Of a stretch of DNA of 64,000 nucleotides, positions 8,245-48,700 are shown in pieces. Both the position numbers and the translations under genes were made by a program. The notes below the pieces were generated by a model. The model did no database searches. It was not told the origin of the DNA and saw only the letters and a program-made list of their open reading frames with translations. The first letter of the stretch is position 1, and every line of letters begins with the position of its first letter. Source of the DNA: Nitrosopumilus sp. (GTDB lineage Archaea > Thermoproteota > Nitrososphaeria > Nitrososphaerales > Nitrosopumilaceae); contig OZ245003.1 in assembly GCA_965223425.1 (NCBI GenBank), positions 96,001 to 160,000 of the forward strand, read 5' to 3'.

Positions 8245-8585
8245 ATTAGTTCAATCATTTTTTAATTTCTTTTTATTATTTTAGATTTTAACGGCATCTG
8301 GTTTGCTTTGTGAAATATTTGGCTTTTTCGGCTAGCTAGACATCATCATTCCTTGACACATTTGTAGATTACACTAGACGTATGGATCAGTTAGACTGAT
8401 GCCAAAAGGCATCCGTGAACAAAAAATACGGCCGCATGATCTATCCCGGTGCACAGAAGACTTTATGCACAATTGAATCGTTAAAATTTTTCCGAAAGAT
8501 TTAGATCCATTTTGATCGCCGCAACAGGTAATGGAATCTTCAGAACAGACTATACGCAGGCTGCAAAGGGAGCTCAAGCAAAAGG

Positions 8586-8664
8586 ACAGAGCAATCAAGC
8601 AGAACAACAGAGCAATCAAGCAGAACAACAGAGCAATCAAGCAGAACAACAGAGCAATCAAGCA
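8586..8664 (+). repeat. 21-bp tandem repeat (KQNNRAI heptad) in the transposase N-terminus
   Basis: ACAGAGCAATCAAGCAGAACA x about 3.7. Confidence 0.85.
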
Positions 8665-9004
8665 AAAGGACGCAGCAATCAGCAGGCGCGAGAAGACAAT
8701 TGGCCTGCTGCGCGAGCAGCTGCTGCGCGAGGACAGCCTGTGGGCCGTTACAGATGCAGGCCGCTCTGATACGGACACGTCGCTGCTACTGCACAGCAGG
8801 GAGGTGATCCACGGCATACTGCACAACAGCGCAAAGCTTGCAGGGATTACCGTATGACCTTGACCAGTTTGACTACACCTGCAATGACTTTGTGGTAGAG
8901 TCAAAGAGGCACAACAAAGACGCGCCGCTCTTTTCAGAGGACGAAACACCGGATCCCGGAAACCGCTGCCTGCTTGACCGCAGGTCCGTCCTGCTGCTTG
9001 CGCT

Positions 9005-9112
9005 GTTCCGCAAGCGCTCAAACGTGACGCAGGATGCACTCTAAAGTTAAAGAGCAAGCCCCTAATCAGCCTACAAGTTCCGCAAGCGCTCAAACGTGAC
9101 GCAGGATGCACT
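9005..9112. repeat. 36-bp direct repeat pair around a 36-bp unrelated insert (CRISPR-like unit)
   Basis: GTTCCGCAAGCGCTCAAACGTGACGCAGGATGCACT at 9005-9040 and 9077-9112; insert at 9041-9076. Confidence 0.85.
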
Positions 9113-10613
9113 GGGAGTGCTGTTTGATGTGGATCAGTCCACCGTGTGCAGGTACCTCAAGTTTGCAGATTCCGTGCTGGCAAAGATTCTGCCTACTGCA
9201 GACAGGATGACCCGTCTGGTAAAAAAGGCCGAGACATCAGAGCAGCTAGAGCAGCTAATGCCGGACAGAACCATCATAATTGACGGCACCGAGGTGGTGC
9301 CAAGGCAGCGTCCGCAGGACAAGGATAAAAGAAAAAACACGTACTCTGGCAAAAAGAAGCGCTTTACGATTAACACCACCATAACAACAAACAAGGCAGG
9401 CCTGATACTTGCAGCAGGCAGGTCCTTTGAGGGCGGGACGCACGACCTTGCCATGATAAGAGAGGATCCGACAGACTGGCAGGTGGTCTAAATCCATGTA
9501 CAAAAAAGACACTCCGGAAAAGGACAGGATACGGTGCTTGCAGACAAGGGGTACCAGGGATGCCAATCACTACGAGGGAATAGCACTTGAGATGCCGGAA
9601 AAAAAGAGGCCGCGGACGGAGCTGACGCAGCAGCAAAAGGACTCCAACAAAAGGATCAGCGCCAAGAGGGTAAAGGCGGGGCACGCCATCGGAAGAATAA
9701 AGCAGTGGGCAAGGATGACAGACCCGTACGACGGCACGGTAGAGGAGTTTCGCGAGGAGCTGGCTGTGTGTACCGGCCTTGCAAACTTTGGTTTGCTGTG
9801 GGATGCAAAAAGAAAGCGGCCGTCACTTGGTTATTGACGGTACGATACTGGGTGCATGATGATGATGATGATGATGACGCATCGCAAGAGTGCGCACGGA
9901 TTTCTAATTTCTGCGAATTTACAATGATCTTTTGCATCAAAATTAAATAATTTCCTGGACTGGCTTTGTGTGTCTTGGTAATGTATGCTGCAGAAAAAAT
10001 TTGACGGGTCAATTATGCATAAAGTCTATTGTATATGACGTCTCATCAAGTTTCAGGTATTTTGATCTGCCAATATTTTCTTTCCATGACTCTACCTCTG
10101 ACTCTAACGCTCCTCCTAATGCAAACAGCGCGTTTTGTATTGTTTTTTTGCAGATTGACGTGTCATACAGGCTTGCTGCCTCCCTGATTGAGTTCAGGCT
10201 GCAGCCTTGTTTATACATCGACATGATTATTGTCATGAGGTTCTTGCCAATCGATGTTCCGTCTATTCCGACCCGGGGCGTTGTGACACGTCCGCACCTG
10301 CAGGTGCAGTGCTGTATGACGTTGTTTGTGGATACGGTCCTTGGAATCTCCGGAATGTCGACTGTCATCTTTGTCGTGGTTTTTGTAACGGTAATGCCTT
10401 TGCTGCCGCACTTTGCGCATTTCTTTGGCCTGTGCACCGTTGTGTGACAAGGCCTTCTCTTGTGGGATGCGCCGACGTGGCCTGCCTTTGCTCCGCCCTT
10501 GTTTGGAGGGGAGGAGGAGGAGGAGGAGGAACCGCCTTTTGCACGGTCTGCCTTTTTTCGGCGCGTGGGAATGGAGTTTGCCGACGGCGGTGAGTGCGGA
10601 TTCTCGTAGAACG

Positions 10614-42649: not shown

Positions 42650-44365
42650 TCACATCATTCCGCCCATGTCAGGCATTCCGCCCATTCCAGGTGGCATCCC
42701 TCCCATTCCAGGTGGCATCCCTCCCATTCCAGGTGGCATCCCTCCTTCTCCTCCACCGGGAGGTCCACCTGCAGATTTCTGGGTAGCAATTACATCATCA
42801 ATTCTAAGAATCATACATGCAGCCTCAGCAGATGCAGATACAACTTGAAGTTTAACTGCAAGTGGTTCAATAATGTCACTTGATTTCATATTAGCAATCT
42901 TTCCTTTCATAACATCAATTCCAGTCCATTTCTCGCCTTTCTGTTGTTTTGATCGAAGAAGTGTAAGGGTATCAATTGGATCCATTCCAGCATTTTCAGC
43001 AAGGGTTAATGGAATTGTCTCTAATGCATCAGCAAATTTTTCTGCAGCTAGCTGTTCTCTTCCTTCGAGAGATTTTGCCCAATTTCTTAATTTTGTTGCA
43101 GCAAATGTTTCAGGAGCACCTCCGCCTGCAACAATTTCTGGTTTTTCAATTACATCTTTTACAACCATTAAAGCATCATGAACAGAGCGTGCAACTTCAT
43201 CAACTACTCTTTGCGAGCCTCCACGAAGAAGCAAGGTAACTGATTTTGGGTGTTTACAGCCTTCTACAAATACCCATTTGTCTTCCTCAATTTTTCTTTC
43301 TTCAACAACATCTGCGCTACCTAGATCTTTTTCAAAAAGATCGTCAAGGTTTGTAACTATTCTAGCACCTGTTGCTTTTGCAAGTTTTGTAAGATCACTT
43401 TCTTTTATTCTTCTAACTGCAATAATTCCAGCTTTTGCTAGATAATGTTGAGCCATATCATCAAGGCCTTTTTGACACAAAACCACATTTGCACCAGAGC
43501 CAATGACTTTGTCAACCATTGTTTTTAACATTCTATTTTCTTCGTCTAGAAATGATTTTAGTTGTTGGGGATTTGAAATGTTAATCTTGGCGTCAGTTTC
43601 AGTTTTACTAATTTCTAATGCGGTGTTAATTAATGCAATCTTGGCATCGGTAATTTTTCTAGGCATACCTCCATGAACAATTTCTTTGTCAAGAACAATG
43701 CCTTGAATTATCATCGAGTCTTTGATAGACCCGCCTGCCTTTTTTTCTACTTTAACGTCATCAATATCAACATCATAACTTTCACTGTCTTTTTCAGAAA
43801 CAGAGAGAATAGATTTTACAACAATATCTGCCAGCTGATCAGAATCTTTTCTAACAAGTTTAGTTTGCATTGAAGTTTTTGCAATTTTGGTTAGGATGTT
43901 TTTATCATTTGCATCTACCTTGTCTGCAATACTTTCAAGAAATTGTTTTGCTTTTCTTCCGGCTTTTCTGTAACCATCTACGATAATTGTTGGATGAACA
44001 TCTTGATCAATTAGTGATTCAGCATGTTCCAATAACGCACCAGCCAAGACAACTGCTGAAGTTGTACCATCTCCAACTTCGTTGTCTGTAGTTTTTGAAA
44101 TTTCAACCAGCATTTTTGCAGCCGGGTGTTGAACATCAATTTCTTTTAAAATTGTGGCACCATCATTTGTAATAGTGACATCACCCAGAGAGTCAACTAG
44201 CATTTTATCCATACCACGTGGGCCTAGACTGGTATGAACAATTTCGGCAATAATTTTGGATGCAGCAATGTTGTTTTTTTGTGCGTCTCTGCCCTTGGTT
44301 TCTGAACCTCCTTCCTTTAGCAGTACGACAGGCATACTGCCTTTTGAAGTGGCTTGCATTCCCAT
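42650..44365 (-). CDS. thsB: Thermosome (group II chaperonin) subunit
   Basis: [25 protein letters not shown] tail; alpha/beta assignment uncertain. Confidence 0.92.
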
Positions 44366-45789: not shown

Positions 45790-48700
45790 TCAGGCATAAT
45801 CAGTAAGAAGTGATTGGTCTCCTTGACTTTTACCAAACACCAACTCAATTTCATCTGAGAGTGCATGAATTCTACCTCTCTGATATTCGCCAACATCATA
45901 TTTCTCAACAAGCCTTTTTGCAAGTTTTAGGTATTTTTCAACTGATCCTCTAGTTATTGTAGGGATCAGCTTATGACCGCAGACGCAAGTTTGGATGAGA
46001 GGCGTCCTACGAAATGATTTTCCACAACCGGTACATCTAAAATTTTGTCTGGCGTATGATCTAAGATTTCCCATTATATCTGGAACCAAGTGTGTTGAAA
46101 TAACATTTGAAACAATTTCTGAGGTATTTACTGCGTCAATTAGTTCGGCATTTTTAATTTGCATATCAAATTTGTCAAGCATAGATCCAAGTGTAGAATA
46201 TGCACTGCGTGATTTGGAAGTGGTCAAAGAAGATGTTGAATGTGTAAAGAAGTAGTCACAGAATTGTTTTTCAGTTTCAAGACGTGATTTTATAATTTCT
46301 ACAGATGTCACGTCTGATGCCTTAATTTGTTGAATAGTAGACTCGAAGAATTCCAATGGAAGTGATTTTGTGACTTCAAGATTGTGTGCTTGTGGCTGGG
46401 ATTCATGTGGCAATACAAGAGGCTGAACAAGTAATGGAGCATCCATTAATCCGCCTATTCTATCAGAAAGAAACTGTCTTGAGAAATTAAGCAAGCTGTC
46501 CATTAGAAGCATAATAGAATCAGCATCGCCATCTGCATCTCTTCTTTTTGCAGAATGCCAGTTTGGAGTTCCAAAACAAACATGGGTTTCAGCATAGCCA
46601 ATAATCCGCCCTACTATTCCAACAGAAGTATGGGGGGCCAAACCAATTACCAGATGGCCAATTAGTTCTTCAGAATTTTTTACATTGTAAAATGAGGATT
46701 TTCCATAAAACTTGACTAAAAGAGAATCAATGTACTTGCAAGTATCAACTAGATATTTTCCACTATCGTAAGGAATTATCACATCTTGCATGCGAAGTTC
46801 AACAATTTGTTCTGAATGTTCAAGAGGTTTTCCGTCAATATCACTAGAATATCCCAACTGCTTTAGTTTCTCTATGGATGTTCCAATCCATGACGGTTTG
46901 AATTGGGTCAGAGGTGAATTCGTTGCATCAAATCTAACAGTTCCATCTTTAAACACAGTAAGCCCGAAGTTTTGACGTGCAAGCCCTTTTTCAAGAGGTT
47001 CAGCAATTTTGTCTTGACTGATTAACTCCTTTACTCCCTTGAATGGTTCTTGGGCACGAAATTCCATCTTTTGTTGAGCTGAAAGCAGTTTCGCTTTTAG
47101 TGGGAATTCCTTGTGTGAATAAGCTGGTGCCTTACGTTTACATTTTTCACAGTATGGTTCATCCAGAGTATCCCTACAATTTGAACATCTGTAAGTGATT
47201 GTTGTCTTAGTACCACATTTAGAGCATTTTATGCCAATAGAAGGTTCATCACATTGATTACAACGTCTGTTGAAAATGTTAGTAAAGAAGTGTTCAGTTC
47301 TAGATGCTTTTAGAAGATCTCTAGTCAGTCCGCCTTTGTCACTAATTGGAAACAATACGTGTGTAGGAGGTTTCATTTGTCTAGGTGCAGCTTTCTCAGG
47401 TCTTCCTATTCTAACTCCAATAGAGTTTGAGAATTTGTTTCTAATTTGAATTCCAGATATTTTTGAAATGATTTTTGGAACTGACAAATCAGAAATTGTT
47501 AGTTTTTCTCTGAATAACAAATTAAAGAAAATTTTTGCCTCTAGATTTTCTAGAGTTATAGTATCATTTTCAATTTTATGAGGAGTCCCCAATTTTTCAA
47601 GAATTTTTTTGGTTTGAATTGAATATTCAATTGATGTTTCATTAACTTGTTTCGGTTCTAAAAGCTGTTCAAGTTCTTTTGGTGAAATTTTATCCCAAAA
47701 ATACAGATATTGTGGGTGGAGAGAAATTTGAAAATCAACAGAAATTTTTAATGCTTCATCTATTGTTGGGTTTTTGATCAGAAATTGTTTTAGATATTGA
47801 TCATTTGGTTCATGTTTCTGGATTTTTTGTTTTAGTTCTTCTATCCAAAATTCCTCAACATATCCTGAAGGAATAAGTTGGGCATTGTTTTCAAGAAAGT
47901 CTCCAAACGAAATTAAAATGTCTCCAAGATGTAGAATTTTTTCCATTTCATTTTTTATTTCTAGTCCGTGTTTTACATCTCTGATTTTTACGACATTGCC
48001 ATTTTTCAAACGAACTATAGGAGTGTCGATAGAGTCTACAAATGCTACAGTTGCCCCCTTTCCTGGAGTATCGATTTTGATCTGTGTTCCTACAGTAATT
48101 GTATGATCCAGAATTTCAGCAATTACAGGATGAAGCCCGACTGATGCAAACCCGGTATTACATGCTCTGCCATATCTTAGTCTAAATCCGCCTAATTTGT
48201 TAGGCATGGATAAGACTGATCTGCCTGTAATTACCTCACGCATTCTTTTGGCAGCTGCATCTTCCTGGTTTTCACCCGTTTGAACTGCGCCTTTAAGATC
48301 ATTGAGCCATTCCCAGCCATCAAGATGATACAACTCGATTCTTTTGAGAAGTTTTTTGGATCTTCCAATTAGTCCGTCATTTAAAACACGTAAAGCGCCA
48401 CCCCTAACTCTATCAGTTTTGATACGAGCCATAGATTTGTGATTTACAACCTCAAATGGATCTGTATCCACTCCATCTAACTCCACGGGAAGATTAGAGA
48501 TCACATGTTCAATATCTTCATCTAAGATATGGAATTGAAAACTACTGGCCTCTCTTTCATAAATTCTTAATTCTTCAACAAATCTACCAGTCTCATCATC
48601 AAAGGAATTAGCTTGGAATTTTGATAGTCCAACTGCTTTTCTTACATGATCTGCAATTAGCATTGTTACTGCAGATTCTGTTCCTCCTGCCGAACGCATC

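Follow-up and report, generated by a model that had tools for sequence, protein, structure and literature searches.

A 72-bp insertion in the transposase gene of an insertion sequence (IS) of a Nitrosopumilus chromosome is very probably the product of one full-site spacer integration, carried out by the organism's own type I-B Cas1-Cas2(-Cas4) machinery at a target that is not a CRISPR array. The insertion lies in the 64,000-nt window that we analysed, which corresponds to C1:96001-160000 of this genome (here called G000; two contigs, 2.64 Mb, GC 0.41). Natural off-target spacer integration by Cas1-Cas2 had already been proposed for this site in a first-pass annotation, and every check proposed there that could be run was passed. 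A set of similar scars elsewhere in the chromosome, many of which hold copies of the organism's own DNA, places the site among a series of such events.

The duplication at the focal site is exact: two 36-bp copies that are 100% identical enclose 36 bp of unrelated sequence (Table 1). Because the bases that adjoin the two copies differ (T/A before the copies, C/G after them), the 36/36/36 borders are unambiguous. As the first-pass annotation had described, the insert is more AT-rich than the duplicate (GC 0.42 versus 0.58), has no terminal inverted repeats, and adds a TAA in the transposase frame, at which an ORF terminates. It also encodes no transposase. When 72 bp are removed, the frame is uninterrupted at this point, and intact IS copies read ...LLLALFRKRSNVTQDALGVLFDVDQ... 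across the site. The duplicate begins with GTT, and its reverse complement finishes ...GCGGAAC. A hairpin had also been proposed within the duplicate, and this part of the description did not hold up: the fold has an energy of -3.8 kcal/mol with z = +0.45, and 130 of 200 shuffled sequences fold equally well. The native repeat adjoining cas1 is likewise unstructured in the folding test.

The unit sits inside a 1580-bp IS with 40-nt inverted ends. Domains HTH_Tnp_4 and DDE_Tnp_4 are recognized in the transposase of intact copies (Pfam PF13359, 2.2e-24; PF13613, 1e-08). The IS family has more than 20 further genomic matches in G000, and intact transposase ORFs of 430/431 aa are present in the copies c1186 and c694. 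The focal copy shows 4.5% divergence from an intact copy and, in comparison with c694, has frameshifting deletions at approximately 8850 (2 bp), 9476 (2 bp), 9532 (1 bp) and 9560 (2 bp), in addition to the 72-bp insertion. Because of these deletions, the focal IS copy is a multiply broken pseudogene. The claim that the integration had knocked out an IS is therefore only partly correct: the four deletions also destroy the frame, and any of the lesions may have come first. The two halves of the scar are still identical, which suggests that the scar is younger than much of the decay of this copy. Towards its N terminus, the transposase has heptads (AIKQNNR / AIKQKD) that are encoded by a 21-bp tandem repeat at positions 8574-8699. 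The number of these repeats differs between IS copies, and in comparison with an intact copy, the focal one has lost 42 bp here.

Other copies of this IS lack the insert, as expected from the original proposal. A model of the site minus 72 bp was aligned over the junction in paralogues (88-97% identity), and this analysis yielded 20 empty paralogous sites and 0 filled ones. Also, a Logan contig of public run X6 joins position 9004 directly to 9077. It follows that the insert was gained and its target duplicated, and that the arrangement is not ancestral. Six public runs contain 0.41-0.68 of the sampled words. Depth over 9045-9074 is zero in four of these (X1, X3, X4 and X6), whose contigs are short unitigs from other IS copies or related organisms, and for that reason they neither support nor contradict the insert. 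One contig of run X1 links the IS piece 9144-9175 to sequence like the repeat of the second array of G000 (described below), so that a CRISPR array in that sample appears to contain a spacer that matches the IS family.

Intact cas1 and cas2 genes and arrays with repeats of approximately 36 bp, which the first-pass annotation had advised looking for, are both present. Genes for a 331-aa Cas1, Cas2 and Cas4 (profile scores of 216, 56 and 83 bits, respectively) adjoin an array of 74 identical 36-bp repeats that lies directly beside cas4. A divergent operon beside them contains a 557-aa ORF without family match, cas7 (Csh2-like), cas5 (Cas5h-like), cas3 and a weak cas6, and by this predicted gene content, the locus is type I-B-like. 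Apart from the 331-aa gene at the CRISPR locus, the only Cas1 match in G000 is a fragment of 131 aa. Nitrosopumilus and Nitrososphaerota MAGs contain the nearest Cas1 relatives, at no more than 62% identity. The cas1 fragment and a cas2 gene make up a remnant second adaptation module at C1:1379849-1380392, to which a multi-copy IS is directly adjacent.

The 73 spacers of the native array are 34, 35, 36, 37 or 38 bp long (n = 22, 21, 17, 11 and 2). Based on gene order and on the crRNA handles of type I/III systems, we infer that this array is transcribed on the minus strand and has its leader at the cas4 side. The reverse complement of the repeat ends GATTGAAAC, a 3' end that we take to serve as the crRNA handle. 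A second array, at C1:1682473, has 7 repeats of 36 bp and spacers of 35-38 bp. The focal duplicate has the repeat length of both arrays, and the focal insert is within the native spacer range of 34-38 bp, at a length shared by 17 of the 73 native spacers. From these lengths, it follows that the scar has exactly the native geometry.

A genome scan for additional scars, which had likewise been recommended, found about 27 others in G000. We used an exact scan for isolated two-copy direct repeats (length at least 24, gap at least 10, period 21-400), in which 23 of 44 units had periods of 71-77. In a tolerant scan (at least 30 of 34 matches, periods 40-160, isolated units only), 27 of 45 units had periods of 71-75 (binomial, 3.6e-26), one had a period of 77 and one a period of 78; outside periods 70-78, the scan found 16 isolated units over the remaining 112 periods. 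On curation, C1:1104350 (period 78) was removed as a coding tandem repeat, C1:1341215 was added (the isolation rule had excluded it, as it is approximately 290 bp from scar 1341502), and the copies at 252320 and 532092 were counted as one event. The curated set comprises 28 events, with periods of 71 (3), 72 (11), 73 (6), 74 (5), 75 (2) and 77 (1). Non-isolated candidates at 1174178, 1271796 and 1721174 bring the total to about 31 ectopic sites.

Each scar has its own "repeat," which is drawn from its own locus. The duplicates are perfectly identical in 20 of the 28 events, and their exact lengths range from 34 to 39 bp. The mean period is 72.9, compared with about 71.3 in the native array, so that ectopic periods are approximately 1.5 bp longer. 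In view of this scatter and the longer mean period, the reaction is less precise than at the array. Empty paralogues exist for several scars (Table 1). For a scar in a 1117-aa SNF2-like ORF, the closest homologue (in genome G015, 37% local identity) has a single copy of the segment, and a gap at the insert.

Two loci have more elaborate histories. One scar near the right end of the IS is found in three copies of the family to which the focal copy belongs (C1:252320, 532092 and 1305095), with 8 copies empty, and seems to have been carried along by transposition. At C1:1721174-1721350, three duplicate copies of approximately 34 bp surround two identical inserts, as if a tandem duplication had followed the ectopic integration. 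These inserts derive from the same IS family as the focal copy (IS positions 417-455, 92% identity), which shows that the family supplies spacers in addition to receiving them.

Table 1. Coordinates of the focal unit and its IS, of an insert source in the window, of scars with empty paralogues and of the units in the congener. Entries of the first eight lines are window positions; scars of G000 and units of G061 are given by genome position.
Feature	Position	Strand	Basis or remark
IS left terminal inverted repeat	8453..8492	+	40-nt arm, 83% complementary to 9993-10032
IS transposase remnant, frame in pieces	8531..9837	+	ORFs and comparison with intact copies
Duplicated 36-bp target, first copy	9005..9040	+	Exact repeat; single in 20 paralogous IS copies; presumed "leader-side" copy, from its GT start
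36-bp insert (putative ectopic spacer)	9041..9076	+	Unique in genome, longest other match 13 nt
TAA stop introduced by insert	9042..9044	+	End of ORF 8838..9044
Duplicated 36-bp target, second copy	9077..9112	+	100% identical to 9005-9040
IS right terminal inverted repeat	9993..10032	-	Partner of 8453-8492
Chromosomal source of the 38-bp insert of scar C1:2401614	45958..45995 (C1:141958-141995)	-	36/38 nt identical, sharp edges
Scar	275655		5 empty paralogues, 99% identity
Scar	311394		3 empty paralogues
Scar	1565093		9 empty paralogues
Scar	2466835		35 empty paralogues
Scar	2320571		8 empty paralogues
Scar	1951927		1 empty paralogue
G061 units	C1: 43914, 61661, 381767, 879346, 1174536, 1536512, 1589657		

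Comparison of the scar set shows that the inserts are all different and have no common sequence or inverted ends. Fifteen of the 28 match elsewhere in the genome over at least 30 nt, including one that matches only its own paralogous filled copies, and 14 of the 28 are sharp-edged, 34- to 38-bp copies of other chromosomal places. Among native spacers, only 1 of 73 is self-derived (Fisher, 1e-8). The 10 insert-source alignments that were inspected end at the insert borders, or within 1-3 nt of them. Mismatches between insert and source cluster at positions 1-3 of one end, and this cluster is left unexplained by the model proposed below. Multi-copy IS elements are the sources of two inserts, and the source of the insert of scar 311394 is at 308856, approximately 2.5 kb away. 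One insert source is an element of about 36-50 copies.

The self-matching native spacer (C1:1362329-1362362) occupies the fourth place when counted from the presumed leader side. It is perfectly identical to C1:198216-198249 (5' flank ...TTAT), and this match suggests tolerated self-targeting or a non-permissive PAM. The difference between inserts and native spacers would be accounted for by a loss of self-derived spacers from the expressed array through selection, with no such cost to the cell at ectopic sites. Of the 13 self-protospacers that were mapped, four are in C1:141958-198249, a stretch of 58 kb with a GC of 0.33-0.37 (post hoc P = 2.7e-4) that starts at window position 45958 and is partly inside the window. 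One possibility is that spacers are acquired here with unusual frequency; another is that the stretch is an island.

For the focal insert, the possibility that it derives from nearby DNA, which the first-pass annotation had raised against its own proposal, is ruled out, because the longest other match in a search of the whole genome is 13 nt. The focal 36-mer has no exact match in viral_contigs, genome_contigs or metagenome_contigs, and a blastn comparison with phages gave only one chance-level hit (E = 0.4). No common PAM motif is apparent in the flanks of 10 self-protospacers and of the one self-matching native spacer, and the ends of native spacers show no fixed base. When the native array was compared with 150 congeners, only repeat-to-repeat matches were obtained, and no protospacers.

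Taken as a set, the targets show two tendencies that recall the native repeat. GT is located exactly at the duplicate border in 10 of the 28 events (expected frequency 0.10; P = 2.5e-4) and at offset 0-1 of the border in 14, and the other half have no GT at or beside the border. In the 14 events oriented by GT, A accounts for 39 of the 84 bases at positions 4-9 (background frequency, 0.29; P = 7e-4). Although the orientation of these events was set by GT, the enrichment of A is independent of that choice. The A-rich positions recall GTCTAAAAGAAA in the native repeat. At the focal site, the junction is ...GCT/GTTCCGCAAG, compared with ...ACT/GTCTAAAAG in the native array. The focal target as a whole is weakly like the native repeat: the two agree at 14 of 36 positions, and just 2 of positions 4-9 are A. 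Identities between ectopic targets and the native repeats number 4-17 of approximately 36, an apparent resemblance that is weak and uneven; two targets look closer to the repeat of the second array (17 and 21 identities).

Comparable units exist in G061, a complete 1.70-Mb congener with a related type I-B array that has a 36-bp repeat and periods of 70 (10), 71 (33) and 72 (19). Of 20 isolated units in G061, 7 have periods of 69-73 (P = 1e-5). These 7 units have exact duplicates of 35-37 bp and inserts of 34-36 bp, and for two of the inserts, a 100% identical sequence exists at another G061 locus from which it was copied. At 43914, the duplicate has the end ...GGATTGAAAC, resembling a true repeat. 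In the genus, Cas1 was found in 35 of the 61 genomes searched, G000 included, and many congeners have Cas1 ORFs of 410-450 aa.

Scars are overrepresented in repeated DNA, which constitutes 21.7% of G000 (at least 100 bp and at least 80% identity, self-BLAST in 1-kb chunks): 12 of the 28 have a flank in repeated DNA (P about 0.01), and 16 are in unique DNA. G000 is unusually IS-laden for its lineage, in which congeners are 1.2-2.6 Mb. Seven scars are located in C1:1706815-1730982, an ORFan region with ArdC-N and DUF2958 hits that is probably an integrated mobile element. The region C1:1704000-1733000, which has these 7 scars within 25 kb, is 24-48 kb from the second array. Scars have a period that is a multiple of three more often than native units do (13 of 28 versus 17 of 73; P = 0.03), and several in-frame scars keep long ORFs open, extending them from 413 to 437, 1092 to 1117, 272 to 296 and 277 to 301 aa. 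This pattern of persistence would fit purifying selection on a random-ish mutagen. Cumulative GC skew, which is lowest at approximately 1.48 Mb and broadly highest between 2.3 Mb and, across the contig end, approximately 0.1 Mb, has no clear link to scars or protospacers.

The first-pass annotation had interpreted the focal unit as a fossil of array birth, and our data do not bear this out. None of the approximately 31 ectopic sites has a second, different spacer, and the duplicates are without the 3' end of the native repeat. The sole three-copy unit (C1:1721174) has the same insert twice. At the focal site, the duplicate terminates in ...GGATGCACT (...TTGCGGAAC when read on the opposite strand), whereas the native repeat ends ...GATTGAAAC. 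We therefore regard the scars as dead ends rather than growing arrays, and judging from their sequences, they are presumably non-functional by-products.

We infer catalysis by Cas1-Cas2, the orientation of events and the order of the two attacks from sequence, and the model is as follows. The adaptation complex would carry a prespacer of approximately 36 bp and attack the top strand at a GT that resembles the native leader-repeat junction. The bottom strand would then be attacked approximately 36 bp away, at a distance set by a repeat-length ruler, and gap repair would copy the 36-bp target on either side of the spacer. The product would mimic a repeat-spacer-repeat unit, yet be built of transposase coding sequence. 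The same reaction would account for approximately 28-31 events in this chromosome, and for a minimum of 7 in that of G061. Its products would survive mainly where the harm is small, that is, in IS copies, in the putative integrated element, and as in-frame insertions of 24-25 codons.

Some of these observations could also result from Cas-independent repair, in which template switching or end-joining leaves a short tandem duplication with filler DNA. Genome-derived filler is typical of such repair, half of the inserts are self-derived, and the source at 308856 is only about 2.5 kb from its scar at 311394. However, repair offers no reason for a constant duplication of 36 ± 2 bp with an insert of 34-39 bp, and units are scarce at other periods (just 16 across the 112 periods outside 70-78). 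Moreover, the peak of periods shifts along with the native array in G061, the preference for GT at the border matches the start of the native repeat, and the focal insert has no genomic source. We therefore consider repair very unlikely. A different integrase, be it a Cas1 homologue of the casposase type or some unknown element whose target duplications measure 36 bp, appears slightly less likely again. Casposons with family 1 casposases are known in Nitrosopumilus, according to an excerpt of PMC8464041, and the Cas1 ORFs of 410-450 aa occur in many congeners. Against this idea, G000 has no casposase-sized ORF (its Cas1 matches are the 331-aa gene and the 131-aa fragment), the inserts lack a common sequence or inverted ends, and the length of the duplication is that of the CRISPR repeat. 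Casposon target duplications are about 14-15 bp, and a duplication of 36 bp is far longer than those usual for IS elements and casposons.

Assembly or polishing might have created the 72 bp inside a multi-copy IS, and an IS with more than 20 copies at 88-97% identity is an error-prone setting for assemblies. Four public runs gave the insert no independent confirmation, but as their contigs stem from other IS copies or other organisms, they are no evidence that the insert is absent. About 28 units with the same precise geometry, 16 of them in unique DNA, a period that matches the native array, inserts that are exact copies of distant loci, and 7 equivalent units in the independently assembled G061 make an artefact highly improbable, more so than either repair or another integrase. 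Least probable of all, and close to negligible, is a genuine mini-CRISPR array, imported or decayed, for which a mobile element was the carrier and which was not made in place. Mini-arrays on mobile elements and isolated arrays are known, transfer by mobile genetic elements is one of three proposed origins of the latter (excerpted from PMC13142298), and the scar in three copies of this IS family shows that units can travel with an IS. Nevertheless, the "repeat" of the focal unit is transposase coding sequence that is single in 20 other copies and has only 14 of 36 positions in common with the native repeat, and every scar has a different "repeat" from its own locus.

Off-target integration by Cas1-Cas2 is already established in vitro and under overexpression. 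The events described here, about 28 clean ones in G000 and 7 in a congener, are in the chromosomes of wild archaea, and for many of them an empty site is provable and the source is identified. With this number of scars, the self-derived half and the insertions that remain in frame within genes, G000 is an unusually rich natural case. It provides natural data from which the target rules of a type I-B integrase can be read (GT start, A-rich stretch and 36 ± 2 bp ruler), and indicates that genes and mobile elements are scarred by mutations that arise from CRISPR adaptation itself. The contrast between 14 of 28 and 1 of 73 self-derived sequences bears on the autoimmune cost of adaptation. A broader proposal, to which we give slightly less than even credence, is that the type I-B adaptation module of this lineage is habitually promiscuous, and thus is both a recurrent endogenous mutagen and the author of an unselected natural record of Cas1-Cas2 captures. 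If so, ectopic integration breaks IS copies and adds 24-25 in-frame codons to proteins, and the record it leaves is approximately half self DNA, compared with approximately 1% in the expressed array. Such a record would give an in-genome estimate of how much of the self/non-self bias comes from post-acquisition selection and how much from choice at acquisition. Similar scars can be sought in other genomes as isolated repeats that are present in two copies, at a period that is the sum of native repeat and spacer lengths; array finders that need repeat families or at least three repeats probably miss such units.

The literature searched, in which Nivala 2018 and Shmakov 2020 were covered through papers that cite them, contains no report of such scars in Nitrososphaerota. 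Off-target spacer integration in E. coli generates "neo-CRISPR" units (Nivala, Shipman and Church 2018, as related in parts of 10.1101/148544, PMC6698737 and PMC11788318). In these accounts, as in G000, the genome encodes Cas1-Cas2, and an insert of spacer length is enclosed by a repeat-length duplication at a chromosomal site that is not a CRISPR array. The E. coli units, however, arose on overexpression of Cas1-Cas2 in a type I-E bacterium, whereas G000 is a wild archaeon with a type I-B system and approximately 28 fixed events, half of them with self DNA. Also, the scars in G000 show no sign of growth. For natural off-target integration in two other species, 10.1101/148544 describes circumstantial evidence only. 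Off-target spacer acquisition is one of three origins proposed for isolated or orphan arrays (Shmakov et al. 2020, as cited in an excerpt of PMC13142298). Orphan arrays share with our scars this proposed origin far from cas genes, but the "repeats" in G000 are unrelated to the native repeat and are locus-specific.

Insertion sequences and casposons likewise leave direct repeats of the target around the inserted DNA; the inserts in G000 differ in that they have no inverted ends and no gene, and are all different. Two archaeal adaptation systems can also be compared. Cas1-Cas2 of Pyrococcus furiosus integrates in vitro at off-target sites with features of a repeat (PMC6698737, in part), namely, a leader-repeat junction and an adenine-rich internal block, which have their parallel in the GT border and A-rich stretch of the G000 targets. 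The P. furiosus reactions used plasmid substrates in vitro, whereas those in G000 are fixed in vivo events with complete gap repair. For the type I-B system of Haloarcula hispanica, the excerpted text of PMC4872114 describes one end that is defined by sequence and another that is defined by distance. The H. hispanica repeat is 30 bp long and has AACCC/GTGGG motifs, compared with 36 bp in G000, but a ruler of the same kind fits the 34- to 39-bp scatter of the G000 duplicates.
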